The notes beneath the pieces are model-generated. The model was not told the origin of the DNA. It saw nothing but the letters and a program-made list of their open reading frames with translations, and ran no database searches. This document shows positions 8,984-54,300 of a DNA stretch of 64,000 nt, piece after piece. The position numbers and the translations under genes were made by a program. Positions within the stretch are counted from its first letter, which is position 1. Each line of letters begins with the position of its first letter. This DNA is from Psilocybe cubensis. Taxonomy: Eukaryota. Where the stretch lies: assembly GCA_017499595.2 (NCBI GenBank), contig CM039008.1:992001-1056000 (forward strand). The letters run 5' to 3'.

Positions 8984-10577
8984 CAGTGGGCAAAAAAACC
9001 GTTCAAGTGTTGGTCACATATGAAAAGATTAATTTATAACTTTGAAATTAAAAATGTTAAAAATATGAGATTATTCACAGGTATACTAGAGGGTATTAGC
9101 TAAAGGATGGCACACTGATCATGTGATTTTTCCAAGAATTGACCAAACAGGAGCATATACAGTTTGCTAAGTCATTCGAACAGTTTTTTTGCTAAACACT
9201 TGAGTATCAATAAATCATATCTACTAGTACTTTGTATGTCCACCCTTGGTCTTAATCACTGCTGCACACCTTCTAGGCATGCTAGCAATCAAATTCCTTG
9301 GGTATTCCATTCCATTCCTTCTCAACCCTCTCCCAAAGTTCATAGATACCCTTTGGTGGGACTTTATGTTCATTAAGTCTTCTTTTGAGGTATTCCCATA
9401 GATGTTCAATGGGGTTGAGATCTGGAGATTGTGCAGGCCATATGAGGACCCTAAAATTCTGCTCTTCAAACCATTTCTTGGCCAATTTTGAGGTGTGCTT
9501 GGGGTCATTGTCTTGCTGAAAGTGGATATCTTCTATCTGTTGACCATACCACTCCAAGGATTTTAGGAGCTCATCACCTAGGATCTCAGTGTATAACTGA
9601 GAATCCATCTTCCCATCAATTCTAGTGGCAAATCCAATTCCTTCCCATCCCATACAACCCCACATCATCAAGTTTCCTCCTCCAAACTTCACAGTTTGCT
9701 TGATCCTCCTGGGGTCCTGTCTGTTTTCCTTGTCTATCCACACCTGATCTCTGCCATCTGAACCCAATCTGTTGATTTTGGTCTCATCTGACCATCAGAC
9801 CCTTGTCCAGTCATCCACAGTCCACTCCAAGTGCCTTTCTGCAAACTCCAATCTAGCCCTCCTATGCTTTTTTGATAACAAAGGCTTCTTTTGTTTTGCC
9901 ACTGAGACCATGCCAGTTGATTTGAGTGCATTCCTAACTGTTTGAGGACTGATATTCTGGCCATTAATAGTAGCCAGAGACTTGGCAGCTTGCACAGCAT
10001 TCTTGATTTGTCTAGTTTGAATTCTACGCTTGGTATAGGTGATATTGGCACCAGTCAGCTTCTTTGGGCGTCCTCCATGGGAAACCACTGCCTCAGGACA
10101 GTAGTCTTGGCAAATCTTGGTGATAGAACCAGCACTAGCTCCAGTCTGGGCCTTGATAGAGGCATAGGAGTGACCAGAAGTAAGAAGAGAGACAATAGTA
10201 GCAATGGTTGCTTTAGAGAGAGGTTTCATGCTTGATTGGGGGGATAAAGAGGTTGGTTGTAGCTATTATATACCTATTCAACATGTAGTCACATGATTTT
10301 ATTGATAGTTGTTTGGTATATCAACAAAGTCATGTGATAATACATAGTTTATAGCATTTAAATTACTAGCAAAAAAACTGTTTGAATGACTTAGCAAATT
10401 GTGTATGCTGCTGTTTGGTCAATTCTTGGACAAATCACATGATCAGTGTGTCATCCTTTAGCTAACACCATATAGTATATCTGTGAATAATCTCATATTT
10501 TTAACATTTTTAATTTCAAAGTTATAAATTAATCTTTTCATACGTGACCAACACTCAAACGGTTTTTTTGCCCACTG
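8984..10577 (-). mobile_element. Full-length Tc1/mariner DNA transposon (Tc1, DD34E) with ~210-bp TIRs
   Basis: Ends TA|CAGTGGGC...GCCCACTG|TA, TIRs at ~8984-9194 and ~10367-10577, transposase inside. Confidence 0.96.
9224..10229 (-). pseudogene. Tc1 transposase with one in-frame stop (9795) and a C-terminal frameshift (~9297)
   Basis: GGRPKKL, WSDETKIN, TVKFGGGNLMMWGC, FQQDNDPKH, WPAQSPDLNPIEHLW (34 residues between D and E) and terminal KGGHTKY. Confidence 0.95.
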
Positions 10578-10649
10578 TAAGGGGGGAGAGGTGGTGGTAG
10601 GAGAGGTAGAAGAGGTAGAGGAAGAGGGAGAGGTGGTGGTGGTGGGAGA

Positions 10650-10770
10650 GGAGGAAGAAGAAGAGAAAGAGGAAGAGGAAGAGGAAGAGGAAGAGGAAGA
10701 GGAAGAGGAAGAGGAAGAGGAAGAGGAAGAGGAAGAGGAAGAGGAAGAGGAAGAGGAAGAGGAAGAGGAG
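10650..10770. repeat. (GAGGAA)n microsatellite
   Basis: A near-perfect hexamer run that produces the poly-E and poly-S ORFs. Confidence 0.95.
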
Positions 10771-11266
10771 GTGAAGGACCCTTTAGTTGTATATAAAAAA
10801 AAAAGGATTTTCTTCAAGAATTACACAAGGTCAGATTGATGCTTTGTTAACATGTACTTTAAACTGCTGATGTCCATGCTATGTATGAGAAGGCGGAAAA
10901 GGAGGAAGATGGAAAGACTATAACTGGTAATATTTGCAAGATCTGCCAGTCAGTTTTTTTATTTTGTGAGTAATGAATGAGTACTCATACATATCTTTTT
11001 AGAAGCAGGAAAGTTCCATTAGGTGCTTGCTTTATGACAGGCAGCAATAGTTCATTATGCAAGCATATTTCTTGGTTAGTTATTCTTTTTATATCTTTTC
11101 TCTAATTTAATGCTAATCTATGGATAGAAATTGGGAAACTCATGGAAAGAAGTACCTCAATGGGTGTAAAAAACTTAATATGGACCCTAATCCTATATAT
11201 TTGCCCAATTCAGCTAAATCAGATATAATAGCACATCTTTAAGGCCACTTGACATGTATGTGACAT

Positions 11267-12041
11267 TGAAGTATTGTGCGGTTTTGTAAGACTGGTAAAC
11301 CAATCTTTCTTACTCACACAGACCTTGTTCTTCACCAAATATATATTTGTAGAGGTATTAGAGAAGCTTTGTAGTTTGTTTAGAAGTTGTGCTACACTTG
11401 CCGCCCTAGGATCTCAATGTACTGAGTCAACTTATCAAGGTGTTCACAATAGTCCAAGTGACTCTCAAATTAACAAGACCCGACAGATTGTGCAAACAAC
11501 TCAATCAACCAAAATGCAATGATTCAATCTTTATTACACGACTTCAACTAACTCGCCAAAAATGGGTACAAACCCAAAACTACTGCCTGTTCTATACAAC
11601 GGGGGTTGCTTGCCTTTCCTCTCGCTGTTCCTCTCCCTTTTATCCTCTGACGCTTGGTCCATGCATATTGAGCTTGGTGCTGTTCTGATCCGTTTTTCCA
11701 TATGTGTTGAGCGGAACAGTTGAATTTTTATCCTTCACGCTGGGTGAGCTTTTCTCTTTTGTTTCACTCACGGTTATGCTTCCTAGCTTGCGCTCATGGC
11801 CGCGTTTCTTGGTTTACTGGTTGGTTTGAACTGGGTGACAGTCCCTTGCACCCCGAGTATAGCACCCTGGTCTGTCATCCTCCGTCTTACCGCCGCGTTC
11901 GAGTTTTATTTTGTGGCTTATATATACTTTGACACGTGCTTGTGCATGCCTCGTCACCTGACTTAGTCAAGGCTCGGCCCGTGTTCTAATTTTAGCTCTT
12001 GTTCGTGTTTTTCCAGGCTCATGCAACAGCGCTTCTCACCA
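11267..12041 (-). repeat. Gypsy 3' LTR
   Basis: Direct repeat of 20350-21120, preceded on the minus strand by a G-run PPT (12042-12049). Confidence 0.95.
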
Positions 12042-12265
12042 TCCCCCCCAACTAATAAAGCTTTGGTCCTGTTTCCCCGTTTTCATGTCTTATTCACCTC
12101 CCCCCTCGTCCGTTGTCTGAGACATATGGGGAGTGATCAAACCCATTCCTTTGGAGTAGGTGAGTTTGACTTGTGCATCCGCCTGTAGAGACTTTTTCAA
12201 CTCCTGTCTGCCTCAATGGTTTAAAGGTGAGTTCTGCTCCTTTTCTGTCCCTGCTTCTGGTTATC

Positions 12266-13581
12266 ATGTCTGTCTCTTCTAACACCATAGTTCTACAGCC
12301 GTTGGTTGCAGAGATCCACAATGACACGTTACTGACGCTTGGTCTTGCTTTGAACGATGGCAACCGCCTAGCGCCCATCTTTTCTCAATATGGCAAAATC
12401 CCACATGTCTTACGGGACCTTGACGAGAGTGTGCACAAGTTTGTGAGTATTAGCTGTTCAAAGTTACACCTAGCGTTTGACTTTCTCCTTTTCTTTAGGA
12501 GCATACCTGACCAGCAGACCAAGTTATGGTGGTGCAAGATGCCACTAATCTCTGTTTCGAACTGCGTACTGCTTATTTCAACATACAACGAGCTCTTTGT
12601 TTGGCCAACCCCGCGCTCCCCAAGATGCCTCAATCACCGGCGTTTGAAGTGGTGTTTGGTATTTGCAAGACCATCCAGCAACTTTGCCATGGCGCGACGC
12701 CCGAAGCTTTATCTACGGAAGTCAGTGCATCTTTGTCCGTCAAGCCTGGCAATGTCCTTTCTGTTGGAAACTCCTCCACTGGTGGCGGCGCCACTCCTGG
12801 AGAGCGCATGGAGCCTTCACGTCACAAGGTGAGGCCCAACTTTACACCTTTTAATTCCTTCTGCGTCAAACCACCACCGCCTTCCAGCGTTCCCGGCGAG
12901 TCATAAAGTCCAAGACTATTGTCGAATCCTCTGACATATGCCCTTTTTGTCTCTTTCTTCTCTTCTGGTGCTTAAGCGTTGTTTACTAATGTTTTTAGCA
13001 GGAGGATGAGGTAACACGATATGACCTCATATTATTTATCTTGCAACTCATTGACGGTATGCAGGCCATGTCCGTTGACAACGACGGCCCAAGTCAAATT
13101 GCAATCCCTACCACCATTGTGGACTCTTCTACCCCTGGTGCTTCTCAGCTGGGTTCTTCTTCTGTTTTGTCTAAGGGCAAGGGGACAAACAAGGTGTGTG
13201 TGCCTCACTAATTCGCATCTCCCTACCTGATTACCGTTCTTAGCGGCCTGAAACTGTTCTACTTGACTATGAAGCCGCCGGTGTATCATCCAGTGAGCCT
13301 GCATTGCAGAAGGCATGCCGATATGCCAACAAACGTGTGCGCTCCAAAGAGGCTAAGTCTAGTAAGTGCCACTCAATTTTTCGTCTCACCATTTGCCTAC
13401 TCATGCCACTTGGGCAGTGACTACACTGGGTTTCTCTCCCAAGAACTTGTCTGTAGACCATGCTTTGTATAATCTCTACAAGGAAAAAGCCGACTAGGAG
13501 TTCCACTTGTCGCATTTACACAACTAGAATGAGCTAACCTTGAAGGAGATTGCCAACTATACTCGCTTGAAAAAGGGCTGA
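12266..13581 (+). pseudogene. Antisense 7-exon gene inside the gypsy element (~325 aa, unknown function), with 3 nonsense changes and one mutated donor
   Basis: Exons 12266-12442, 12499-12828, 12888-12935, 12999-13010, 13065-13193, 13244-13361 and 13418-13581. Introns are 56, 59, 63, 54, 50 and 56 nt, and splicing keeps one frame. Confidence 0.75.
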
Positions 13582-13698
13582 GCGTACCTACGATAAGACA
13601 CCTTACTGCTTATGGGTTTTTATTCTAGGCCGTGATTCTTTCTTCGTGTAGATCTTAGTCATGGTTTTCCCATTGTGTAGCGACTTCAATGTCACCAT

Positions 13699-16600
13699 TT
13701 ATGCTGACTCGTCTTTGGAGCCCCAATTTGTTAGTGGGAGCCTGTCCCAATCCGGGGCAGCTGTGAATTCTTCTTTGCTGGATGCTTCTATGCGGTCTAA
13801 CCCTTCTGGAGAGGTATCTAGTATTTCTCCTATGTCATCAGGCAACGGTATGTGCTCACGCGCGTAGTATGGGACTACCCGGAATGCACCTACTTTATTC
13901 TGCCACACAGCCCCGTCCATTTTCGCCACAATATAGGCCCCTTCCTGAGTCCTCCTGACCACAATCATTGGGCCCAGGTAGCGTGGTGTCAGCTTACTGC
14001 TGTGTGATGACTCCACGGCTGTATTCCTGACCAGGACTAGGTCACCAGGGCTGAAGCTATAATTACGTATAACCACTTTGTGGTCCTCCTCGTACTTGTG
14101 CAACCATGCATATTTTTCCTTGTCTATTCTAGAGCGCATGCGATCCACATGCTCACGGTGCTTCATCAGTGCTTTAGCTTGGTAAGCTATGAGTTCTTCG
14201 ATACTCATCAATCCTTCTGGCAGATTAACTAACCAGGTTGCTTCCTGGACATCTAGCGGCAAAATAGGGTGCGCGGCTGTAACCAGGAAGTACAGAGAAC
14301 ACCCCAAGCGTCGCCAAATTGTTACACAATCTGCCCAAAACACAAAGGTGAGGAACCAATACCACTTCTTAATGTTTTCTTCGCCTAGCATCTTATACAA
14401 CATCTGTCAAATGTCAAAGTAATATTGTTCAATCTTTCTGTTTGCCTTTGAGTTATACGGTGAGATTTTAATCCCTGTGATATCATACTTCTCTCTAAGC
14501 CATTTGATTGCCACTACAAAAGGTGGTCCGTTATCCGTGACAATCGTGGTAAGACACCCCCCAGCGACATAGGATGTCCTCCCATAGCCACTGTCCTATC
14601 GCCCTACCTGTTTCTCGTACCAGGCCCCGCCCTTCTATCCAGGTCGTCAAGTTGTCTCTGCCATGCACCACCGTGTTGCATCCATTCAACGGAGGTGTCA
14701 TCCTCATACTGTCAGCGTGTAGTACTTGGAATATGGACGGTGTGAAGGTCATTATTGGCCTGAGTCGCAACAAGGTGTGTTGTCTCTGTTGGCACCTGTG
14801 ACACGTCTTCACATACCAGTTTATATCCTTTTCTATTAAGGGCCACTAGAATTGCTGGACCAGCATCTGGGTAGTCGCGTATACCCCTCTGTGCCTGGTG
14901 TGATCGTGTGCTGATTTCATCATGTACATTCTATCATTTTTGGGTACTACCAGTCGGTGCGTATTTTTGTAACTATGCAAGTACAACTGTTCCTCATGCT
15001 CAAAGAATCTGCGGGCATATCTTGTAAAGGTCTCCTGTCAATGCCCCGACCACCCTTTGCCTTTCCACTTTTTGTCTCGTAACCATACCTTGACCCACTC
15101 CAGGTCGTTATCCTGTTGTTTGGCAAGCGTAGTCCGGTGTTCTTCATTATAACGTGCCACCCTGTCTACTTTGGCTGGTAGCGCCAGGATGTTTGTGAAC
15201 TGTTCAAAAACCGTTCTTTGTTTGGTGGTTAGTTTTGTGTGCTGTTGATCCAATCATGCTTCTATAGCCTTCAATTCTTCTGCACGTAACTCATCTGCAC
15301 GACTAAGTTCTTTACTCAAGTCCTTGGTGGTCTTGGCAGCACCCGCCAAGCATCCTGTGTCTGGCACAATTTGATCGACGAAAGTCTCTATCGGTCTTGG
15401 CTTTTCACTTGGCGACAGACTTAGTGCGATATGTTGTAAGTACCCTCCTCTATTATCTATCAGAGGTTGGAATTTACTTATATCTTGCAATCCCCTCTCT
15501 GTGTCATCAAAGACTTCCGTAGGGGGCAACTTCCACTCCTCTACCTCATCACCCGCGGTTCCAGGTGGCTCATACCATGGCTATCCCTTCCTTCTTGACA
15601 ACCCGTCGGGACCAAAGGTCTTGCCTGCCTTATGCCTTAAGGTAAATTGATACAACATTATTTCCTCTATCCACCTATTGATTGTGGCATTAGGCATCAT
15701 ATCAGGATTTCGCAGCATACCATCAATGTATTGCGTGTCTGTCTTGACCACTAATTTTTGACACCCAATCAGATAAGCCCTGTTTTCTTTTAGTGCCCAC
15801 TTGAGCCCATATAACTCTCGCTTCGGTTGTGAATACCTTGACTCGTGTTTGTGCAAAGTTATCAAGCCAAATTTTACATAGTTGATGGTGCCATCCAAGT
15901 TTTCCTGATAAATATAGTACCCTATTGCAATGAACGAGGTGTTTACTGCCAATACAACCGCGTTTGCCACTTCATAATCTATATTTTTCAGACAGGGTGC
16001 GTTCTCGGCAGCTTGTTTTAACAATCCCATACTAGACTCTTGCTGTGGCCCCATTCAAACACTCTTTTCTTTTGGGTGAGTTTTTGCAAGTGATAAGCTT
16101 TCTCTGTGTACCCGGGTATGAAGGCTCTCAGTGTTCCACATGTACCTAGAAAGGCACGTATGTCCCCTATGTCTTTGCAAGGCGCCCATTCACTTATGGC
16201 CTTAACCCTTTCTACCATGGGTTTTCTTCCCTTGTACGTACATCTATGCCCGACTACTGGAATCTCTTTGGCGCATAGAACTGATTTGTAACCTGAGAAT
16301 GTCCTGCCCGCATATTTTATACGCTGGAGTACACGGTTCACGTTTCCTAAATGCTCCCATACAAATCGCCTGATGCCACTATTCTGTGGAATAGTTTCAA
16401 AGGTGCTCTCCACTTTGTATGGGGTTGCAGGTCCTTGGACGGCTACATCATCAATGTATGGTATCGTCACATTTGGTATCTCTTCCTGCAATATGTATGT
16501 TACATCGTCATGAAATATAAGTACTGAGTTCGTCCATCCCATTGGCAGGATCACCAGCCTCATGGCGCCAAATGGCGTTTGAAATGTAGTTATGTCTCTA

Positions 16601-17610
16601 AACTTTTCATCTATTTTTTGTTCATCATAGCCTACGTATAGGTCAAACATCCTGCCACATGCGCGTTTCGCAAAGTGCATAGTGAGGTCCTCCGTACCTG
16701 GCGGTAGGCCGGAATGGGCTATGGTTACTGCGTTTAGAGGTTCCAGGCTATGCACAATGCACAGGCTCTTCCCATCCTTCTTCAGCACTGTAAACCATCT
16801 TGAGCGGTAGGATGCATTTGAGGTTTCATAAACTCCTGACTCTTGCTTAGATTTTATTATTTTACAGACCTCCTCGTATAGTCCCTTCAGAATAGGTATG
16901 TTTTTATAAACCCAGGGTGTGTGCTCCACTGTGGGTATCTTAACTGGGGGAAAGAATTCCTCTTTGAAGTGCCCGCGTTTGCTGTTGTCCCAGGCAAATG
17001 CTTGGTTTTGTTGCATGATGATATTGTGTACCAGTTTCCTTTCTTCTGGCCACAGAAATTCATCTCCATGTACCTTGTCCATTGCCTCCATACGTTCTTG
17101 CGTATAACAGCGTGTTGGCACAAAGTCCGTAGGGTGCGGATTCAGCTGGGGCATGTCTGCCAGCAGATCTCCCTTGATTTGGCGCTTTATGCAGAATTCT
17201 TCCGGCAAGTCAGTATAAACTGGCCTTACTTTTTGCACTACTGGTTTATATCTCTTCTTGCCCAGATAGGTTGCCAGTTGCCTTGTTATTTTAGCCTTTT
17301 GAGTGCCTGTCTTTCGTGATACGTTATATGTTTTGCCTTGAAAGAACTGCTCCAATCTTTGCTTATCTTTTGGTTCCATTACTTTGTGTTCTAATACTTG
17401 GGATAGAAACGCCTCTCTGACCTCTTTCCTCAAGAACTTATCTGCTTTAATCTGGTATGCGTGAATTTTTAGCTCCTGTGTCTTTTTATTTAATTCAAAC
17501 ACGGCTGCCACCTCTCCGCCCTCGCCGATTTGGTTCAACAAGTTAGCCTTGAGGTTGTCCTCGAGGTGGATTAAAAACCCTCCGCCTTTTTCTTTCTCTT
17601 GTCTGTACAT
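13699..17610 (-). pseudogene. pol: Gypsy pol (RT, RNase H, integrase), broken by stops and frameshifts
   Basis: RT: SNASYRSRWF, FDLYVGY, LPMGWTNS, YIDD. RH: YSQPKRELYGL. IN: CHRCQ and KLTPRYLGPM (GPY/F-like). No chromodomain seen. Confidence 0.95.
17552..17580 (-). promoter_or_regulatory. Putative -1 ribosomal frameshift signal between gag-PR and RT
   Basis: G GGT TTT heptamer directly before the gag-PR TAA. The -1 frame continues GFLIHLED into pol. A GAGG-ACAA-CCTC hairpin lies ~8-11 nt downstream. Confidence 0.7.
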
Positions 17611-19990
17611 GTTTTTGGTCCTCTGCCTTGCTCAAAGATAGGAACCACTGCTTTCCTCCCAGTGTTAGGGTCCTCTATACAAATAGTGGCGGACCCATCA
17701 TGTTCTGTCTGCACGTTGGACCGCGTTAATGAGTCGAAGGTTCGTCCCAGCAGGATAGTATAGGCTGGGTTCCTAATAACATGGACCTGCAGATATATGG
17801 TGATGCCTCCAAAGGTGAATGGCACGTTCCTTGCAAGTCCTAACATGTGGTTAATAGTTTTATTTGCGCTTTCCATGTTGATGGTAACGTTGGGATCCCA
17901 GCTTAGACCTGTCCTAAGGGCTACTTCCTCAGACATGGATACTATTTGGGACCCGCTATCCATTATAGCTTTGATCTCTTCTACTCCATTGATTTTGGGC
18001 CAGAGAGACCGCAGTTGTTTGGTTTCTTTCCCTGTGTAGGTGGAGGTTGGTAACTTTTTCTCACCCTGCTGTAGTAACTGCAAGTAGAGGTTATTACCAA
18101 CTTTATATTGCTTTTGTGAGTCTAATTTATTGGTCAATATAAACACCGCTAACGGTTCTAATTGGGACGTTGATATTTTTATGGGAGTGACATCTTTTTG
18201 CAAGTGCTCTCGCACTTGTGGCGCACTGCCCAGTAGGTCTCTTACAGTCACTGTGACTAGTGCACTCATAGCTGTTTCATGTAGCTGCTGACTGATTATA
18301 ATGTTTTCAACTAGTGCCTTAGTACTATACACCGGTTTTGACTTGTAATCCGGCCCACGCATGTCTATTATGGGTCGCACAACTTCATTTAGTGGTTGTA
18401 CATCTATGTACGGTAGCTTGTTTTTATTTTTCTCTGTGTCTTCTTTATCTGCTTCTGCTTGTGCAGGTGTATTACCGTTCTCCGGGTTGTTTTGTTGTTG
18501 GAAATGCGGTGAGGTACATCGTGCCCCTTCATAACCCTTCCTCGAACTTAGGGAAAATTTCCCAGGGTAGGTTCTTCTTCTTCATCAAGAACTGGATGCC
18601 TCCCTAACACTGCCTCAAACGTGTCGTCCCCAAAGTCTTCTCAAAGGTTCATAAGGGATTTAGACAATTCATATTGTCTATGTAGTCGGTAGTGAGCAGC
18701 GTCCAAAGGTGAATCATTGTGACTCTGCCAGAAACTCAAAGTTTTGCTGACCGGTATAACCCCTGGTGTCCTATGCAAGCTTTCAACTACCTCTTTTCGT
18801 GACTTATTTCCCATTGGATGTACCTGGGACCCATCTGGTAATCTCACATACCCCTCGGCATTCTTGATGACCCATTTGTTATTTAAGTGCCGTCTCACAT
18901 GTGGGCAATCTATTATAATGTGGGTTTCCTCCTTACAGTAATGACACCCTGTGGTCTGGCTTATGCAAGCTTTGGGTGCAAAAGCTGTTTGAGACGTCTG
19001 TGGAAATGCCGCAGTTGGCACTGTATTTAACTGTAGACTATTTTTGAAGGTGAGCATCATGTTCTGGAATTCTAGCATCTGTTTATGCTGGCTTTCCTGT
19101 AACATTTTTAGCTCTAGGGCTCATTTATGCTCTTGGTTACTGATTACATCTGACAACTGAGATATTTGTTCTTCTAATTTGACATAATTCTTGTCCTTAG
19201 ATTCCGGAACCAGGTCTGAAGCTCTATACGCATGTGTAGTCTGGTAGGTTCCTTTCAGCAGTGCGTTAGAGTTCCATTTGGCTGCTTTTTCAGCTATGCT
19301 AATAGCGGCCTCAATGACATCTTCAAACTTATGCCGGTCTTCTCATCGGACCAGCTCTATCTCATTGGACTCTTCCGCTGCTTCGTCTTCAGCTGGCGGC
19401 TGATTCTAGGTTTTGACTACATTTGTAGTATCCAACTTGAAGTCCAGTTTCTGGCCTATTGGTCTGGCAAACTCCGTTGTCAAACAACCGATAAATCGCT
19501 CTACTAGATCACGGTTAGATAGTAGTGCGGGAGGCTGTAACAGTTTCCCAGCTTCTGCTCTAAAGGTTTGTACTAAAGCCATTAAGCCTAGGCTATCATG
19601 ACTTTTAATTTGGTTATTTCCACTATGTTTTTGGCATATTTTGTCCAAGGCATCGATAGAACCTCTATGTAGATTAACAGCTTCTGGGTACGACATGATC
19701 AGGTCCTTCCTGAATCGCTTCCAGGTGCCCTTCTGGAACATACTGAATGCACGCCATTCTGCCTCTGTAGTGGGGGATATGTAACAACACACAACTCGCT
19801 TCTTTTCTTTGTCAGTCTTGACTCTGTACTTTTTGAATAAGTCATCAAGCTGATCCAAGAAACGCAGTAGTTCCTCTGGCTTGTTCTTATCGAACTTTGG
19901 TGTGCCTTTATCGCCTAACAATGGTAAGTCTTTCGCCATTGTTTCTGTATTATTATGTTGTTCTAGAACTTGCTTGCTCTCTTCAGCCAA
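17571..19990 (-). pseudogene. gag: Gypsy gag-protease, disrupted
   Basis: Gag N-terminus TPKFDKNKPEELLRFL, zinc knuckle CHYCKEETHIIIDC, protease IMDSGSQIVSM..ILLGRTF. Confidence 0.9.
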
Positions 19991-20336
19991 TAAATAGACT
20001 GTTTCATCAGCAGCGAGTGGTTTGGTATTTGGTTCTAGTTGTTCGGTATGGGCACTACTCGACGCGGTGTCAAGGTCTACTTCGATTTTTTGTATTGCGT
20101 CTACGATAGACTGAAGTGGCTGTTTTTTATTTATTATGGACTTATGTGTCCCACGTTTAATAGGTTTTTGTTATTGTTTAAGTTTACGGGTCTCAGCTGC
20201 AGCGTAGGACTCTGCGGTTTTGTCACTGATTCCTGCTCACGCGCTTCGACGGGTTGCCACTGTCGCGTTTTTACAAACACTTAGTAAGCTTTTTGTGTTT
20301 TTATATTTTTGACTCTACTGACTAACCTCCCCTCGC

Positions 20337-20347
20337 GGTGGGCTCCA
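20337..20347 (-). promoter_or_regulatory. Gypsy primer-binding site (TGGAGCCCACC), possibly tRNA-Lys type
   Basis: Starts with TGG 2 nt after the 5' LTR. The tRNA assignment is an inference. Confidence 0.65.
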
Positions 20348-20349
20348 GA

Positions 20350-21120
20350 TGAAGTGTTGTGCGGTTTTGTAAGACTGGTAACCCAATCTTCCTTACTCAC
20401 ACAGACCTTGTTCTTCACCAAATATATATTTGTAGAGGTATTAGAGAAGCTTTGTAGTTTGTTTAGAAGTTGTGCTACACTTGCCGCCCTAGGATCTCAA
20501 TGTACTGAGTCAACTTATCAAGGTGTTCACAACAGTCCAAGTGACTCTTAAATTAACAAGATCCAACGGATTGCGCAAACAACTCAATTAATCAAAATAC
20601 AATGATTCAATCTTTATTACACGACTTCAATTAACTTGCCAAAAATGGGTACAAACCCGAAACTACCACCTGTTCTATACAACGGGGGTTGCTTGCCTTT
20701 CCTCTCGCTGTTCCTCTCCCTTTTATCCTCTGACGCTTGGTCCATGCATATTGAGCTTGGTGCTGTTCTGATCCGTTTTTCCATATGTGTTGAGCGGAAC
20801 AGTTGAATTTTTATCCCTCACGCTGGATGAGCTTTCCTCTTTTGTTTCACTCACTGTTATACTTCCTAGCTTGTGCTCATGGCCGCGTTTCTCAGTTTAC
20901 TGGTCGGTTTGAACTGGGTGACAGTCCCTTGCGCCCTGAGTATAGCACCCTGGTCTGTCATCCTCCATCTCACCGCCGCGTTTAAGTTTTATTTTGTGGC
21001 TTATACTTTGACGCGCGCTTGTGCATGCCTCATCACCTGACTTAGTCAAGGCTCGGCCCGTGTTCTAATTTTAGCTCTTGTTCATGTTTTTCCAGGCTCA
21101 CGCAACAGCACTTCTCATCA
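20350..21120 (-). repeat. Gypsy 5' LTR
   Basis: Direct repeat of 11267-12041, followed on the minus strand by the PBS. Confidence 0.95.
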
Positions 21121-24100
21121 ACATCTGTGCCCAATCCCAAGTGGACAAAGGAAGGCCTACTTGAGCATATCCTTTCATTTGTTGTTGAAGATGATCAAGT
21201 ATGTATTCTTTTGTTTTATGATTTTATACTTACGTTTATTGGTGTAGGCATTTCTGGTAATTGAAAAAGACTCTTTTCAAGCTCTTTTGAAATACTAGTG
21301 TCCTTCTATAAAGGATGATGACATTCCAAAATGTACAAAGTTGCTTGAGGAGGTCATAAAAAAGGCCAAGGTAGCAGTTAACTACTTAATTGGTCACTTC
21401 AAAGTATGTTCATTGCATTTTTACTTTATATAAGCCTATACTTATTAAATTTAGACTATTTCCAGTCAGATATTGATTACCTTTGATGCCTGGACCTCAA
21501 AGTCATATAATCCATATCTTGGTATTACTACTCATTATATTGATAGCCTGCTTGATAAGCCTCTTGATTGGGAGCTCAAATCCTGTGTCTTGGGCTTTGA
21601 GGAAATTAAAGGTAATCATGGTGGTGCCAATATAGCTGTTTTTGACCGCTTTGATATACAGAATAAGGTATATATTTTTATTTTCTTGTACATTTATTCT
21701 AATATTATGTTTAGATTGGTTGGGGGACAGTAGATAATGCTACTTCTAACAACAAAGCTATGCACTGTCTTCAATATGTTTTAAATACCATATTTTTATA
21801 ATTTTTAAGGAGCATGGAGCACACTATTCATCTAGCAACTAAAGCTTTTATTGAAATGGTTAATCCTTGCTTTTCTATACACTCAACCAAAAGAAATATT
21901 GTGTCCGCTTCTTTATGTTTTTTTATATACTCAATAAAAACAGGTACTGTGACAATGGAAGATAAAAATGAGATTGAGGAAGACGATGATTTAGACTAGA
22001 CTGCTAACTGGACATATCTTGATTCTGTTTCTGATAAAGAAGAGATTGATAAAGTTATTAATTTTCTTCCTAGTGATGTTCTAGGAAAAGTTCTAGCCTT
22101 GATTAACCAGGTGAGTATTTATTATTTTTTATTTACTTTTTCTAATATACATTTTAAATATGTCTTTCTCCACAAGCCAAGGCATACTTTGGCATTGTGT
22201 GTAAGGAGGAAGCACTTTCTCTACTTGAGTTAATCAAGTGGATTTATACCCAATGGGAATCTATGTTTGATTTAGTTGAACGGTTTCTTGAAAATGAATT
22301 AGTATGTATTTTGATTTCTTCTATTTCTTATTTTCACCTTCTTTTTAGGCAGTAAACAAGTTTGTACTTGTTGCGGATATGTCTAACCATATTCCAAAAT
22401 TGAAGAACAAAAAGTATGCTGACTTTTATCTTACTGAACATGAATGGGATCTCCTACAGCTAATGAAAGAAGTTTTGGAGGTGTGTGTACTTTTCATTGA
22501 TTTATACATAAATATTTATTGATTCTATTAGCATCCACATGCCGTCCAGTCTGAGTTCTCATCTGAGACTCAGACAACTTTGTGGAAAACTATTCCTATG
22601 CTTGAATGTCTTCAGGATAGTTGGGAAAATCTTTTAAAGATTTCCCAATTTGCTCCTATTCATGCTGCTATTCAAAAAGATCTAGATAAGCTTTGCAAAT
22701 GGTATTTGACCATTGATGAGAGTGATACTTATTTTATCTGTTTGGGTGAGCATTTTTATTTTACTCTTTTTTATTATTTTTTTAACTTTTCATGCTAGTA
22801 CTTCAACCTGACATTAAGCTTGCTTATTGCAAGAAAATGTGGGATGAAGAATATTATGACAAGAGATATAATGCTTTATGTGATATGGTGTGTATTTTAT
22901 TTCTTTATTATTAGTTATAACATTATCTGATTTACCTATAGTTTAACTTATATTATAAGCCATGCAAATTGGCTTTTCAGTCTTTACAATCATAAAACTC
23001 ATTTCAAGGTAAGTATTATTATTTATATTAATGGATTTTTTCTAATTTGTTTGGTATTTGAAAGAGAGAGTGCTATTAAGTCTAGCTATGCATCAGCTTG
23101 GATTCAAAACAGCATTCAATCCAAGGTCAATAGTCAAACGGCGGCTTAAAATCCACAAAAGGAGCTTTGTGATTATCTTGAAAGTGATCTAAAGCAAGTT
23201 TCTGATCCTATCAAGTAGTGGGGTGTAAGTAATTTGATAGTTTATTCTTTTATTTTATCTAATGCATTATTTAGTATCATTCAAAGGAATATCCTACCCT
23301 TTCACGGATTGCACACAACTATTTGGCCATTTAAGGCTCATCTATAGCAGCTGAACACTCTTTTCCAGCTAGTGCATTGACTAATGTTCTCAATTGTAAC
23401 CAGATAAATCCAGAACTCTTTGGGTATCTTCAAATTCTCAAAGATTGCTACAAATATAAACTAATAACTGCTTCTAATGAGACAAAGGCTCATGAGCCTA
23501 TGGATTGGGAATCTATTTAAATATCTTGTTATATTTTTAAAAATATTATCTTTAAAATTTTGTCAGTTCTATCAGTTCAAACCTGAACCAAACCAACTAA
23601 ACTGGTTCTAACAGTTTAGGTTCAGTTCAGTTCAGGTTCAGAAATTTTTTAGTGGGTTTAGTTCTGGTTTGGCAAAAATTGGGCTCCGAACCAAATTGAA
23701 CCAAACTTTGGCATCCCTATCCCTTAAAGTGAAGTAATTGGCAAAGTAGCCTAACACATAGTAAGAAGGACTAAGCACCAATTGTACATAGAATTATATA
23801 GAATAACAGTGGCTGAAGAGTGTACATGCATAGATGCAAATAAGAGGAATTAGAGATGTAAACATTGACACAAGGTTTTACCATTGTTAAAAAATAATAG
23901 TAAACAAATTGTTTAAGAAGACATAAGGTAGATGTCATCCATAATTGAATAATGTTACGTGCGCTAAGGTGACAGTCCCAAAATAGCAATCCAGCCTAAA
24001 TTTTACAAAAAAAAACATGGTTTTGGAGAGAATAAATATATTTTCTGCAAAAATTGAACCAACAAAAGGAAGATATAGTTAAACAATGTGCTAATCTCTA

Positions 24101-42849: not shown

Positions 42850-45152
42850 ATCATGCCAGATAGAAAGGACAAACCTATTTTCATGACTTTTAGGTCTTAG
42901 TGGGTTTTTTAAGGAATTGAGCCTTTTTTTTGCAAAATCTATCACTAATCAACACATACACATAACTAATCTCCCAGTTCCTACTGTTTTTTTGCAAATA
43001 TTCTCTTTTCTACAACAGTGTGTGCCTACGAAAATCCTCCATTTTTAACACAAACCTGCCATGCCATAAGGAGTCAACTGGATGTTGATAGCAAAGTGGG
43101 GGAGGGGGGCGGGGCTGAAATTAACATAAATTTAAGATGTATACAATATAATATTGTGACTTGTATAAAAGAGTTATTATATATTCCCTAGTGGAACGTC
43201 TATGATTTATAATTACAGCAATTCTAATAATACAAGGCATTGATATTCAGTTTTATATTCCCTGCATGTGAATCCCCATTGCTCAGGTCATGGGCATTGC
43301 CTTTTCTGGCTATCTTCTATATTGTATGGCTCCCAGCTTTATGTGTGCATGTGTAGGTGTATACTGAATCATGTGCCCAGTATTACAGCCATTTTAATAT
43401 ACAGGATGATACATACTTCTTGCCCATGCAGGTCTTTTTGGGAGACTTATTCTCACATGCTTAAGTGTGATAGGTTATATCCACCCCCTACTCAACCATT
43501 GTGTATTTAATTGATTTCTTGCTGGCAAACCCCAGGGCATTTGCCTTCCGCTCTGCCCAAGGAGGATGGGGTAACTATGTTCTTATAGGAGTGGATGGTT
43601 TGGAATGGGCCAATCACGCACTGGTCTTGTGGCGTGTTTGTGTTGGAATTGCGGTTTGCCCTAACTGCTTGCCCTAACTGTGCCAGCTTTAGCTTGCCTC
43701 CATATAGGACCTAGCCCATGTTATTAATAGCGTAAATTATGCAATGAACCAGGAAGACCTGGTACCACTGCCCTATCCATTCCTTATGGACAATCTTATA
43801 GAACGTAGGGTGCGGAACAGTGCCTACTGCCATGGGTATTTGGACCGGATTAGAATTAGTCATACTATATGTATCAAGCATATCAAGAATATACTGATGC
43901 TGATACAATGAGATGGTACCAGTTCACAGCCATATCTCGCTCAATGGCAACACCAAGTAAATACTGTGTGGAACCCAGATCATGGAGTTCAAAATACGCA
44001 GATAGCTGCTTAACAGCTCTATTCATGGCGGCATCCGATTTGGAGGCAAAGGTAATGTCATCAATGTAAATGGGAACAATAATCTTCATATCTCTGTCTG
44101 AATAGATGTAGACAGAGCGATCTGATTCTATACACTTGAAAATCATATCTGACAGTACCTCATACAACTTGAGGTTCCATTGACATGCAGACTGCTTAAG
44201 ACCTTTGAGCAACTTTTTGAGCTTCAAAACCATGTTAGGACCACCTTGATGAAATCCTTCAGGTTGTAACATGTAAATCTCCTCGTCTAGGTCACCTTTA
44301 GTGAAAGCAGCTGTAATATCAACAGAGCGCAACTTCAAGTCTCCAATGGTGGCCAGAGCCACAATCAAGTAGAAAGTAGCAGCGTGGAAAGTAGGAGCAA
44401 AGACCTCATGATAATCAATGCTCGGGGCATTTTGCTTGATTTTAAATACCCAACCATAGCCAATCGCCTTTTGACCCAGAGGGAGCTCAACTTGCTCCCA
44501 AGTTTGGTTGTGCTGCAACAGATTGAATTCTGTATTAGCAGCCTCTTCCCACATGTGCGCATCAGGCGCTTTCATTGCCTGTTTGAATGTTTGCGGATCT
44601 GCACTTGAAACAAGTCCAGCAAACTCCACCTCTTCAAATCTAGGATAATGGCTTTAGGCAGTTCAGGATCATGTGAGACCTTCCACCATTCACCAGGCTG
44701 CTACCCTAGGAAAGCACCTTTTGTCAAAATCAGCTCTCTCAGAGATAATGAACCTTTTGGTAACTGGGTTGTAAAACTCCCAGCCCTTGTATCCAGTAGG
44801 ATACCCAACAAAGATACAATTCTCCATATGAGGCTGCAACAATTTGCGCTTATCTCCCTGAACATAAACATATGCAAAACAAACCCAAACCTCAAATGAC
44901 TAACATTGGGTTTACGCTTGTTCCAGCTCTCGTATAGAGTTTTGTCCGGTAGATGATCTGTAGAAACGCAATTCTATACATGCATGTTTGCTGCAACACA
45001 GCAACCCCAAAACAAAGCTGGTACACAAGCCTTATTGAGCATGGAAGTAACATGTTCTTCCATGGTGCAATTTGCATGCTCTGCAACTCCATTCTGTTGT
45101 GTCCAGGACAATTTGTCATAGTATAACAAGCTACACTGGTCTGTCAATTTGA

Positions 45153-48800: not shown

Positions 48801-51311
48801 TGTCTGTTTCTATACCTCACAAAGCACAAAGGCTTCAAAATCACCATTGATGCTAATCTGATGGAGTTTCATCGCAAAGGAGCTTGTCTCTTCTCTGCAG
48901 ATGTTAGTACATCAAACTGCGCTTTATTGAAACGGTTATACAGTTCCTATTTCGGAGTCTGCCTTCATTTCCTCCAATTCCACTCTACCCCTTGATATCA
49001 GTCTCTGGCATCGTCGGTTTGCTCATCATAGCTACACTGACATCCAGAAGATGATTAGAGAGGGTATGATCACCAGACTTAAGCTGAATTCACAGCAACA
49101 GCCTGACCCCATTTGTGAACCTTGCCTTGCAGGCAAGATGCATTCCAACCCATTTTCTTCTTCACCAAGCATGTCAGATGTTCCGCTTGCGCTTATCTTC
49201 TCAGATCTGAAAGGTCCTATCTCGCCCCCTACTCCTGAAGGCTATCGCTACTGGATAACCTTTATTGATGACCATACAAAGAGTAGAGCTGCTGTGCCTC
49301 TTAAGCGCAAAAGCGATGCATTCAGTGCGTTTCAAACGTACAAAGCATAGGCTGAGAACAAATTAGGCTTTAAGATCAAAGCGCTGCAGGATGACAAAGC
49401 TGGTGAATACATGTCAAATGCTTTCATCAAATTCACTGACCAGTGTGGCATTGAGCGTCGTCATACAACGCGAAATCGCCCACAACAGAACAGAGTTGCA
49501 GAGCGTGCAAATCGCACCATGGCAGAACATGTTACTTCCATGCTCAATGAGGCTTGTGTACCATCTTTGTTTTGGGGTTGCTGTGTTGCAGCATACATGC
49601 ATGTATGGAATCGTGTTCCTACAGCTCCTCTACCGGACAAGACTCCGTATAAAAGCTGGAACAAGCGCAAACCTGATGTTAGTCATTTGAGGGTTTGGGG
49701 ATGTCTTGCATATGTTTATGTTCAGGGAGATAAGCGCAAATCGTTGCAGCCTCATATGGAGAAGTGTATCTTTGTTGGGTATCCTACTGGGTACAAGGGC
49801 TGGGAGTTTTACAACCCACTCACCAAAAGGTTCATTATCTCTGAGAGAGCTGATTTCGACAAAAGGTGCTTCCCTGGGGTGTCCACTGGCCCTATGCCAA
49901 AGTTTGACCTTCTTCCCACTTCTTCTGCAAGTGCACCACCTCCCAATTCAGGGGGGGACTCTAATGGCTTCAATTTTGATGATGATGAGGATGACTCTAC
50001 TCCAAGTCCTGTCATTGAGCCAGAAGTGCCTATTGCGCCTCCTGAACAGCCAGCTAAACCGCCACAGCCTGAGGCCGTTCCTGCACCTCCTCCTAAGTCT
50101 GCACGCCGCCAGCATGCTCCAGTTGATCCTGCAACGTTGAGACGCACTACTCGCGTTCCTAAGCAGCCTGGTGAATGGTGGAAGGTTTCACATGATCCTG
50201 AACCACCTGAAGCCAATGATCCTGGATTTGAAGAGGTGGAGTTTGCTGGGCTTGTTTCAAGCGCAGATCCGCGCACATTCAAACAGGCAATGAAAGCGCC
50301 TGATGCGCACATGTGGGAAGAGGCTGCTAACACAGAATTCAATCTGTTGTAGCACAATCAAACTTGGGAGCGAGTTGAGCTCCCTCCGGGTCAAAAGGCA
50401 ATTGGCTGTGGTTGGGTCTTTAAAATCAAGCAAAATGCAGATGGCAGTATAGAGCGCTACAAGGCTCGTATTGTTGCCAAGGGCTACAGCCAGCGCCCTG
50501 GCATTGATTACCATGAGGTCTTTGCTCCTACTTTCCGCCCTGCTACTTTCCGCTTGATTGTGGCTCTGGCCGCCATTGGAGACTTGAAGTTGCGCTCTGT
50601 TGATATTACAGCTGCTTTCACTAAAGGTGACCTAGACGAGGAGATTTACATGCTACAACCTGAAGGATTTCACCAAGGTGGTCCTAACATGGTTTTGAAG
50701 CTCAAAAAGTCGCTCTATGGTCTTAAGCAGTCTGCACGTCAATGGAACCTCAAGTTGCATGAGGCATTGTCAGATATGGGGTTCAAGCGTATAGAATCAG
50801 ATCGCTCTGTCTACATCTATTCAGATGGAGATGTGAAGATTATTGTTCCTATTTACATTGATGACATTACCTTTGCCTCCAAATCGGACGCTGCCATAGA
50901 TAGAGCTGTTAAGCAGCTAGCTGCGCGTTTTGAACTCCGTGATCTGGGTCCTACACAGTATTTACTTGGTGTTGCCATTGAGCGAGATATGGCTGCTAAA
51001 ACCATTTCCTTGCATCAGCGTCAGTATATCCTCGATATGCTTGATACATATGGCATGACTGACTCTAATCCGGTCAAAACACCTATGGCTGTGGGCACTG
51101 TTCTCTCCAAGGCAGATGGACCTCAGAATGGAGATGAGATGGAATTTATGCGAAATGTTCCCTACCTCAATGCAGTTGGCTCCTTGCAGTATCTAGCCAC
51201 CATGACCCGTCCTGACATTGCTTTTACTGTGTCTTATCTGGCATGCTTCAACTCCAATCCTGGGCCTAAGCATTGGGCTGCGGTTAAACATTTATTCCGC
51301 TACCTCAGAGG

Positions 51312-54300
51312 TGTTGAAGCAGGCGAGCTCGGGGCAGTGTGAGCTACTCGGCGACCTAGTTATAGAACGTAGGGCGCAGGGATAGACGCCTCTTGACTTT
51401 ATTCCATTTACAACTGGTTCAAAGAACACAGTGCCCACCCCTGCAGAATAAATAACTCGTTCATCTGCTAATCGGATTGGAATGCGAAGGGGGGTGTAAT
51501 TTCTAACCCAATTGCGATGGGGCGTCATATGAGAAGTCGCCCCTGTGTCTGCAATCCAATCATCATTAGTTTGGGGTGAAATAGAAGAGGGAACATCGGT
51601 ATTAAGAGCACTTGCATTTCCAGCAAATTCCATGTCCTTGGACTCTTTTTCCTCACTGGATGCCTCTGAGGCCTTGTGCGCTCTATTGCCTTTGCGAGCC
51701 AGGGAGACATAGAGAGCAGTTTTAACACTCCCCCCTGTTCTGACAAGTCTCCAGAACAAAGAAAAATAAAGCAAAACAGAGAAAGAAAGATTAAAGTTTG
51801 AGACCCATTTTATCTCTACAAAAGTCCACTTTAGGAGGTGAGAGGGGTTTGGTAAGAATATCAGCAGCTTGCTGATCAGTAGGAATATAAGAAGGAGAAA
51901 TCTTTCCAACACCAACAGCATCCCTAAGCCAATAATAGCGCAAATCAAGGTGCTTCATCCGTCCATGGTGCTCTGGATTCTTGGAAACACTAATAGATGA
52001 CTGGTTGTCCATATGCAGCACAGAGGGCTCAGTGACTGTGTAGCCAAACTCCTCAAGGATATTGCGCATCCACACAATTTCCTTGGCTGCCTCCACCGCA
52101 GCAATGTACTCTGCCTCAGTAGTAGACAGAGTTACAACAGTTTGGAGTTTGCTTGCCCAGCCAATAGCACCTCCAGCTAGAATGGTCAAATAACCGCTTG
52201 TAGAGCGTCCAGTATCTACACAATCACCATGTGCAGCATCAGTGTAGGTGACAAAGTTATCATGGCCCACAGCGCCAGAATAAGTCAACTTGTAATCCAG
52301 AGTGCCTCTGAGATAGCGGAATAAATGTTTAACCGCAGCCCAATGCTTAGGCCCAGGATTGGAGTTGAAGCGTGCCAGATAGGACACAGTAAAAGCAATG
52401 TCAGGACGGGTCATGGTGGCTAGATACTGCAAGGAGCCAACTGCATTGAGGTAGGGAACATTTCGCATAAATTCCATCTCATCTCCATTCTGAGGTCCAT
52501 CTGCCTTGGAGAGAACAGTGCCCACAGCCATAGGTGTTTTGACCGGATTAGAGTCAGTCATGCCATATGTATCAAGCATATCGAGGATATACTGACGCTG
52601 ATGCAAGGAAATGGTTTTAGCAGCCATATCTCGCTCAATGGCAACACCAAGTAAATACTGTGTAGGACCCAGATCACGGAGTTCAAAACGCGCAGCTAGC
52701 TGCTTAACAGCTCTATCTATGGCAGCGTCCGATTTGGAGGCAAAGGTAATGTCATCAATGTAAATGGGAACAATAATCTTCACATCTCCATCTGAATAGA
52801 TGTAGACAGAGCGATCTGATTCTATACGCTTGAACCCCATATCTGACAATGCCTCATGCAACTTGAGGTTCCATTGACGTGCAGACTGCTTAAGACCATA
52901 GAGCGACTTTTTGAGCTTCAAAACCATGTTAGGACCACCTTGGTGAAATCCTTCAGGTTGTAACATGTAAATCTCCTCGTCAAGGTCACCTTTAGTGAAA
53001 GCAGCTGTAATATCAACAGAGCGCAACTTCAAGTCTCCAATAGCGGCCAGAGCCACAATCAAGCGGAAAGTAGCAGGGCGGAAAGTAGGAGCAAAGACCT
53101 CATGGTAATCAATGCCAGGGCGCTGACTATAGCCCTTGGCAACAATACGAGCCTTGTAGCGCTCTATACTGCCATCTGCATTTCGCTTGATTTTAAAGAC
53201 CCAACCACAGCCAATTGCCTTTTGACCCGGAGGGAGCTCAACTCGCTCCCAAGTTTGATTGTGCTACAACAGATTGAATTCTGTGTTAGCAGCCTCTTCC
53301 CACATGTGCGCATCAGGCGCTTTCATTGCCTGTTTGAATGTGCGCGGATCTGCGCTTGAAACAAGCCCAGCAAACTCCACCTCTTCAAATCCAGGATCAT
53401 TGGCTTCAGGTGGTTCAGGTTCGTGTGAGACCTTCCACCATTCACCAGGCTGCTTAGGAACACAAGTAGTGCGTCTCAACGTTGCAGGATCAACTGGAGC
53501 ACGCTGGCGGCGTGCAGGCTTAGGAGGAGGTGCAGGAACGGCCTCAGGCTGTAGCGGTTCAGCTGGCTGTTCAGGAGGTGCAATAGGCACTTCTGGCTCA
53601 ATGACAGGACTTGGAGTAGAGTCATCCTCATCATTGTCAAAGTTGAAGCCATTAAAGTCCCCCCCTGAATTGGGAGGTGGTGCACTTGCAGAAGAAGTGG
53701 GAAGAAGGTCAAACTTTGGCATAGGGCCAGTGGACACCCCAGGGAAGCACCTTTCGTCGAAATCAGCTCTCTCAGAGATAATGAACCTTTTGGTGACTGG
53801 GTTGTAAAACTCCCAGCCCTTGTACCCAGTAGGGTACCCAACAAAGATACACTTCTCCATATGAGGCTGCAACGATTTGCGCTTATCTCCCTGAACATAA
53901 ACATATGCAAGGCAACCCCAAACCCTCAAATGACTAACATCAGGTTTGCGCTTGTTCCAGCTTTCATACGGAGTCTTGTCCGGTAGAGGAGCTGTAGGAA
54001 CACGATTCCATACATGCATGTATGCTGCAACACAGCGTCCCCAAAACGAAGGTGGAACACAAGCCTCATTGAGCATGGAAGTAACATGTTCTGCCATGGT
54101 GCGATTTGCACGCTCTGCAACTCTGTTCTGTTGTGGGCGATTTCGCGTTGTATGACGACGCTCAATGCCACACTGGTCAGTGAATTTGATGAAAGCATTT
54201 GACATGTATTCACCAGCTTTGTCATCCTGCAGCGCTTTGATCTTAAAGCCTAATTTGTTCTCAGCCCATGCTTTGTACGTTTGAAACGCACTGAATGCAT

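Follow-up and report, generated by a model that had tools for sequence, protein, structure and literature searches.

A decayed, intron-containing antisense gene within a Ty3/gypsy retrotransposon of Psilocybe cubensis

Introduction

The HBZ gene of human T-cell leukemia virus type 1 (HTLV-1), a spliced basic-leucine-zipper (bZIP) gene, is transcribed from the 3′ long terminal repeat (LTR). Among LTR retrotransposons, antisense open reading frames (ORFs) that occupy the interval from pol to the 3′ LTR have been described in maize Grande, rice RIRE2, Silene Retand, Phaseolus PvRetro13 and Botrytis Boty (PMC7264820 and PMC11963269); for Grande, the same sources report that the ORF has its own promoter and that its product is nuclear. 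Boty is a gypsy element, and its antisense gene, located in the same interval, is called brtn (PMC7264820, PMC8365987 and PMC4227169). Antisense genes of LTR elements are known from plants and from one ascomycete element, their functions are unknown, and a basidiomycete example would be useful. Here we analyze a window of 64,000 nucleotides from Psilocybe cubensis (assembly GCA_017499595.2, contig CM039008.1, positions 992,001 to 1,056,000 of the forward strand), in which a minus-strand LTR retrotransposon of 9,854 bp encloses a plus-strand gene at 12266-13596. All positions given below are those of the window.

The antisense gene is real, contains introns, lies inside the element and has decayed, and an intact paralogue of it exists. 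On balance, we consider it probable that the locus represents a Ty3/gypsy element of very low copy number, here in a dead copy, that carries an antisense additional ORF (aORF-3R) as an accessory gene.

Results

Relatives of the antisense gene

The translation of exon 2 past the first stop (106 aa) was compared with 1.84 billion representative proteins in an exhaustive phmmer search (E ≤ 0.001). Three of the five matches are unrelated, internally repetitive proteins and were discarded; the remaining two are true relatives, referred to here as P0001 (E 5e-44) and P0002 (E 2.8e-22). P0001, listed as 'hypothetical protein JR316_0011477 [Psilocybe cubensis]', has 269 aa, is 99% identical over exon 2 and corresponds to the public annotation of this same locus (window 12266-13497). 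It bypasses the first stop via an alternative splice and terminates at the second; what has been annotated as a gene in P0001 is a pseudogene stitched around its stop codons. P0002 (UniRef A0A8H7XS11_PSICU), on the other hand, is an intact paralogue of 354 aa without internal stop, assigned by UniRef to the same species, and is 46-55% identical to the window gene overall and 55% identical over exon 2. A tblastn search of the 64-kb window with P0002 yields five blocks, for which the summed E-values are 1e-49 and 2e-32:

12287-12439, frame +2: block 1, 23/51 residues identical (45%)
12499-12804, frame +1: block 2, 58/105 identical (55%)
12999-13193, frame +3: block 3, 44/66 identical (67%)
13244-13378, frame +2: block 4, 27/45 identical (60%)
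13417-13593, frame +1: block 5, 44/59 identical (75%)

The frame switches between the blocks fall on GT..AG segments of 56, 170, 50 and 56 nt. Splice motifs alone are not significant; it is the homology to P0002 that makes the spliced frame significant, far beyond chance. In line with a preliminary description of the locus, made from the sequence alone, the phmmer matches and the five tblastn blocks together identify a genuine intron-containing protein-coding gene. Between P0002 and the window gene, conserved blocks alternate with divergent linkers, and such block-wise conservation at about 50% identity points to a long independent evolution under constraint. No further protein relatives beyond P0001 and P0002 were found in word-index searches with the whole of P0002, with its residues 236-354 and in the shorter-length class. 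At the DNA level, none of 260 pattern matches in metagenome_contigs and none of 239 in viral_contigs was confirmed as a relative.

Structure of the antisense gene

The gene sits between the pol stop at 13699 and the polypurine tract at 12042-12050, inside the reverse-transcribed unit and opposite to gag-pol, which is the location that defines an aORF-3R. Guided by P0002, we arrived at a model of five exons, with a total of 999 nt coding for 332 codons and a stop:

12051..12265, plus strand: region upstream of the antisense gene, delimited from sequence only
12266..12442, plus strand: exon 1, 177 nt, ATG start; P0002 aligns over 12287-12439, and M1 and S2 are common to both
12443..12498, plus strand: intron 1, 56 nt, GTGAGT..TAG; P0002 passes from residue 57 to 59, the frame from +2 to +1
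12499..12828, plus strand: exon 2, 330 nt, conserved N-terminal domain and, after it, a low-complexity linker; phmmer, and tblastn to P0002
12829..12998, plus strand: intron 2, 170 nt, GTGAGG..TAG; P0001 and P0002 join ..SRHK and ..NTRN, respectively, straight to (Q/K)EDEVTR
12999..13193, plus strand: exon 3, 195 nt; one ungapped-frame block to P0002 (44/66), with a predicted helix at P0002 residues 181-196
13194..13243, plus strand: intron 3, 50 nt, GTGTGT..TAG; P0002 residues 239 and 240 adjoin, and the frame changes from +3 to +2
13244..13361, plus strand: exon 4, 118 nt, with a conserved KR(A/V)R basic motif; 27/45 identical to P0002
13362..13417, plus strand: intron 4, 56 nt, GTAAGT..CAG; required by the window frame, the P0002 model reading through the equivalent
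13418..13596, plus strand: exon 5, 179 nt including TAA, the most conserved block, with a predicted long helix; 44/59 identical to P0002
13597..13698, no strand: spacer of 102 nt between the converging stop codons

Three of the introns are firm and one is probable. As the P0002 model spans the equivalent of the intron at 13362-13417, the relative provides no independent confirmation of that intron.

The preliminary description had proposed seven exons and six introns. Its model can be reproduced from the sequence (978 nt, 325 codons and a stop, beginning MSVSSNTIVLQPL, ending in YTRLKKG and a stop, with three internal stops), as can the six spacers of 50-63 nt with the donors and acceptors it named. 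The spliced frame itself is real; the number of introns is what has to be lowered. The segment then taken as the fourth intron (13011-13064) is open and in frame, has a predicted helix and shares 16 of 18 residues with P0002 (VTRYDLILFILQLIDGMQ versus VTRRDLILFITQLIDGMQ). Being conserved and open, it is coding, so that the 12-nt exon proposed next to it does not exist: both lie, together with the fifth exon of that model, in the continuous exon 12999-13193.

Upstream of this exon, our intron 2 had been divided into 59 nt of intron, a 48-nt exon at 12888-12935 (RSRRVIKSKTIVESSD, with an AT donor) and 63 nt of intron. The 48-nt exon has no counterpart in P0002 or P0001, and a single intron of 170 nt fits; we judge it rather doubtful that 12888-12935 is an exon. 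A basic patch followed by KSxxxVxSSD, for which a likeness to chromatin proteins had been suggested, is confined to this segment and finds no support in the relative.

The 3′ end also had to be moved. Window gene and P0002 have AYLR followed by a stop in common, which shows that the frame continues past the TGA at 13579-13581, previously read as the terminator and here as a lesion, to the TAA at 13594-13596. With the pol stop codon at 13699-13701, the distance between the two genes becomes 102 nt in place of about 118 bp.

As to coding on the other strand, the six minus-strand frames over 12051-13698 reach only 62-106 aa and contain no Pfam family; sense-strand coding of this interval was rejected.

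Two features lie upstream of the start codon. Within the 3′ LTR, at 11917-11926, where the two LTRs differ by a 4-nt indel, the plus strand reads TATATATA, which could be an antisense promoter. GTGAGT occurs at 12160 and 12228, upstream of the ATG, and may mark introns in the 5′ untranslated region.

The host element

The following parts of the element can be distinguished:

11263..11266, no strand: flanking repeat ACAT, left (target-site duplication), read from the LTR alignment
11267..12041, minus strand: 3′ LTR (TG...CA), 775 nt, 94.45% identical to 20350-21120
12042..12050, minus strand: polypurine tract GGGGGGGA (minus strand), abutting the 3′ LTR, read from sequence
13699..18581, minus strand: broken pol in several frames, with protease, reverse transcriptase, RNase H, integrase zinc finger and Tf2-type SH3
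19406..20170, minus strand: presumed gag region, an open frame of 254 aa without Pfam family, assigned from its position alone
20331..20347, minus strand: primer-binding-site-like TGGAGCCCACCGCGAGG, 2 bases past the 5′ LTR, read from sequence
20350..21120, minus strand: 5′ LTR, from the LTR-LTR alignment
21121..21124, no strand: flanking repeat ACAT, right, read from sequence

On the minus strand, the Pfam matches follow from 18581 to 13702 in the order gag-asp_proteas, RVT_1, RT_RNaseH, Integrase_H2C2 and SH3_Tf2-1. The pol pieces lie in different frames; pol is therefore broken. Two of the matches, RVT_1 with 25.9 bits (Pfam cut-off 29.6) and SH3_Tf2-1 with 23.3 bits (cut-off 30), are below threshold, as is expected because this copy of the element has decayed. 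No chromodomain was detected in the pol of the element. The TGG-type primer-binding-like sequence, which starts with TGGAGCCCACC and is located 2 bases from the 5′ LTR, is a putative site.

With direct TG...CA LTRs, ACAT flanks and the order protease, reverse transcriptase, RNase H, integrase, the element belongs to Ty3/gypsy (Metaviridae). The preliminary description, which had placed the gene on the opposite strand of a gypsy retrotransposon between pol and the 3′ LTR, is thus borne out by the LTRs, the ACAT flanks and the domain order. Between the two LTRs, 39 of 771 aligned sites carry substitutions; 37 of these are transitions, 19 of which involve a CpG present in one of the copies.

Insertion scars were looked for around 12051-13698: there are no terminal or flanking repeats, only matches of 10-21 nt, a size expected by chance. 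No known RNA family was found in 11000-21400.

Lesions and other copies

The reading frame of the antisense gene is interrupted at four positions:

12508..12510, plus strand: lesion 1, TGA where P0002 has W; TGG in run X7 (12510 A>G)
13495..13497, plus strand: lesion 2, TAG where P0002 has Q
13525..13527, plus strand: lesion 3, TAG where P0002 has Q
13579..13581, plus strand: lesion 4, TGA where P0002 has K

Contigs of four sequencing runs were aligned to 10900-14400 at a likeness of at least 80%. Two of the runs, X13 and X14, presumed to be RNA, gave no aligned contig at all, an outcome that is uninformative as to expression. In run X1, possibly the source genome of the window, one contig without any difference (0) alone covers 12070-14400; the interior of the element, including the gene, is single-copy at this threshold, and extra depth is restricted to the LTR. 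No parental gene of at least 80% likeness was found elsewhere in X1 over 12070-14400, which excludes a recent capture there.

Run X7, which bears another organism label, contains contigs that cover parts of the gene with 97.5% identity (11 differences in 439 nt) and 95.3% identity (22 in 473 nt). Over 10900-14400, 160 of its 177 differences are transitions. The differences listed within the gene number 22 and are divided equally between introns and exons, that is, 11 in 162 intron nt versus 11 in about 741 exon nt; six of the 22 are in intron 3. Among the 11 listed exonic differences, three are synonymous, six are missense, one turns the TGA at 12508-12510 into TGG and one creates a new stop.

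The TGG at the first stop and the stop private to X7 show that the lesions are lineage-specific and that both of these codons were still intact in the common ancestor. Both the window copy and the X7 copy of the gene are dead. The stops are secondary lesions, with transitions dominating (37 of 39 in the LTRs, 160 of 177 in X7). The preliminary description had likewise attributed them to transitions after insertion, and W, Q, Q and K at the corresponding positions of P0002 agree with this, as does the TGG at 12508-12510 in the 97.5% identical copy of X7.

The transition bias is extreme in the LTR pair and in X7 alike, and it fits deamination of methylated cytosines in repeats.

The protein product

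In the deduced product, a helical domain at the N-terminus and a long helix at the C-terminus are accompanied by Ser/Thr/Pro-rich linkers, a short hydrophobic helix that is conserved, and a conserved KRxR basic motif. Neither P0002 nor P0001 matches a Pfam family at E up to 5, Transposase_28 (PF04195, TRP28) being among the families absent from these results, and NCBIfam yields no match. A bZIP domain was likewise searched for, with no match in Pfam and no sequence match in the PDB better than E 1.4, the value of the best PDB match of any kind. Among the five exon translations, a single row appears at E up to 1, PF14594 Sipho_Gp37 for exon 2; with E 0.37 and 10.2 bits against a cut-off of 26.2 it is at chance level and was rejected. 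In the ESM Atlas there is no usable feature match, and the Atlas model has a predicted local distance difference test score (pLDDT) of 0.41.

AlphaFold2, run with a two-sequence alignment, gives an unreliable model with a mean pLDDT of 39.1 and a predicted template modeling score (pTM) of 0.19. This low-confidence model contains four N-terminal helices, one helix at the conserved DLILFIxQLIDGMQ and one long C-terminal helix; residues 321-350 of P0002 (pLDDT 72-81) are its sole confident stretch. The KR(A/V)R motif is kept in both the window protein and P0002 and may be a nuclear signal. The protein is an orphan.

Surroundings in the window

The window is a repeat-rich region. The flank of the 3′ LTR at 10900-11227 is itself repeated, with pieces of 84-92% identity in X1 (11044-11227) and X7 (10900-11137), so the gypsy element may have inserted into another repeat. 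Further away, remnants of a Tc1/mariner-type transposase extend over two frames at 9285-10262 (minus strand) and 10557-10796 (DDE_3, E 1.2e-15; HTH_Tnp_Tc3_2, E 1.2e-14), adjoined by a long GAG/GAA-rich microsatellite. Ty1/copia copies or fragments with RVT_2, rve, Retrotran_gag_2 and SH3_retrovirus are located at 43886-44653 (minus), 49351-51339 (plus), 51794-56092 (minus) and 57931-62213 (plus). Three Ty1/copia copies encode near-identical peptides, and the one at 57931-62213 is almost open.

Discussion

The accounts that compete for this locus differ in how and when the antisense gene came to lie inside the element. The least credible of them denies the gene altogether: the frame would be a product of splice-site choice, and the database proteins would be prediction artefacts. 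P0001 and P0002 are indeed both computational predictions, the spliced gene has no RNA support, and the confidence of AlphaFold and the ESM Atlas is low. However, five blocks of 45-75% identity in alternating frames (E 1e-49 and 2e-32), the GT..AG ends of the non-aligned spacers, and a 354-codon frame that P0002 keeps open despite about 50% divergence leave this account very little room. An arrival after integration, in which ectopic recombination or another event at the DNA level brought the segment into a dead element, so that it was never reverse-transcribed, is improbable too, if not to the same degree. It would suit an old element (5% LTR divergence) in a repeat-rich, rearrangement-prone region, but the purine tract is directly at the LTR, the pol stop and the spacer downstream of it are intact, and direct or inverted repeats are missing from the flanks. 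Moreover, X7 has the gene segment at 95-97.5% identity as well as diverged versions of the pol end that may be contiguous with it.

More weight is due to the view that the gene is a passenger: a member of the P0002 family, originally an ordinary host gene, that the element lineage or this copy picked up a single time, in inverted orientation, and that has no role in the life cycle and decayed together with the element. P0002 is intact and annotated like other genes, the element is single-copy in X1, the X7 comparison shows no sign of recent constraint, and PMC7264820 regards the confinement of an antisense ORF to a single copy or a few as a mark of transduction. On the other hand, X1 contains no parental copy of at least 80% likeness, and at 46-55% identity to P0002 one must assume either an ancient capture or the loss of the parent. 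The gene also fits snugly into the interval from pol to the polypurine tract: it has a start and a stop of its own and converges on pol with a spacer of 102 nt. Insertion scars are absent around 12051-13698. We therefore regard the passenger view as the strongest competitor, yet an unlikely one. The absence of scars, the antisense position within the reverse-transcribed unit and a block-wise conserved relative at about 50% identity favour instead an accessory gene carried by the element, the account that we hold to be probable on balance. That the gene is borne by the element is itself probable; its co-transposition with the element, the position of its promoter and its function are what we infer.

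Several observations weigh against an accessory gene. Across the protein libraries searched, the gene family has just two members, and P0002 may be an ordinary host gene, in which case all that is left of the finding would be a single old gene capture by an element now dead. The searches made yielded neither a family nor a fold nor a structural match from which a function could be derived. The X7 copy has its own stop at 13319 (CGA to TGA), and only three of its 11 listed exonic differences are synonymous, which gives no sign of recent constraint. Finally, since X1 contains a single internal copy, co-transposition of the gene with the element is without direct proof.

If the gene is an accessory gene of the element, its expression would proceed as follows. 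The antisense gene would be transcribed toward pol from its own promoter beside or within the 3′ LTR, and the short introns would be spliced out of this antisense transcript. In the genomic RNA of the element, the introns would exist solely as their reverse complement, which the spliceosome would ignore and reverse transcription would copy unchanged. Survival of introns through retrotransposition because of their antisense orientation is established retrotransposition biology, and it is the principle of antisense-intron retrotransposition reporters. The protein would most likely serve the element as a nuclear regulator or adaptor, as the KRxR motif and the analogy with other antisense accessory genes faintly suggest. 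For the nuclear location, the anti-silencing or targeting role and the promoter in the 3′ LTR that had been proposed in the preliminary description, no result speaks, and neither a family nor a fold was found. In the present copy, gene (with four premature stops) and pol alike have been inactivated by transitions typical of methylated fungal repeats.

A bolder version of this reading is tentative and, in our view, doubtful: an agaricomycete Ty3/gypsy lineage would have long kept its own multi-intron antisense accessory gene, whose product, a nuclear orphan protein, would regulate the element or protect it against silencing by the host, with P0002 as the active copy in a sister element. If a long-kept accessory gene is indeed what the locus contains, no accessory-gene family with introns would have preceded it among fungal retroelements, and it would show in nature that a retroelement can carry a spliced gene when this gene is in antisense orientation. 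The intact relative, present in a culturable species, would offer a tractable system for the role of the gene and for the way in which a retroelement retains a spliced gene through reverse transcription.

Among known systems, the plant aORF-3R genes (Grande gene23, RIRE2, Retand TRP28 and PvRetro13) have the same position and orientation as the gene described here, and no protein function is known for them. Their hosts are plants, whereas the host here is an agaricomycete fungus; they belong to abundant families and are found in the majority of copies, whereas one copy per genome was seen in our case. Retand encodes TRP28 (PF04195), while the window gene contains neither TRP28 nor another Pfam family. 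The window gene has three to four spliceosomal introns; in the accessible text of PMC7264820 and PMC11963269, the word 'intron' occurs 0 times.

HBZ of HTLV-1, like the gene described here, lies in antisense near the 3′ end of an element that replicates by reverse transcription (PMC7264820 and PMC11963269), but no bZIP or other domain was found in our gene, its host is a fungus and its element lacks env. Boty brtn is the only fungal case found in print. Its position and orientation are the same as here; the host of Boty is an ascomycete, that of the present element a basidiomycete. An intron-bearing or basidiomycete antisense gene in an LTR element was not found in the searchable literature, which leaves subscription journals outside. 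The arrangement as such is already known; what appears to be new is its occurrence in the basidiomycete phylum, the presence of several introns and an orphan protein apparently unrelated to those of the known aORFs.

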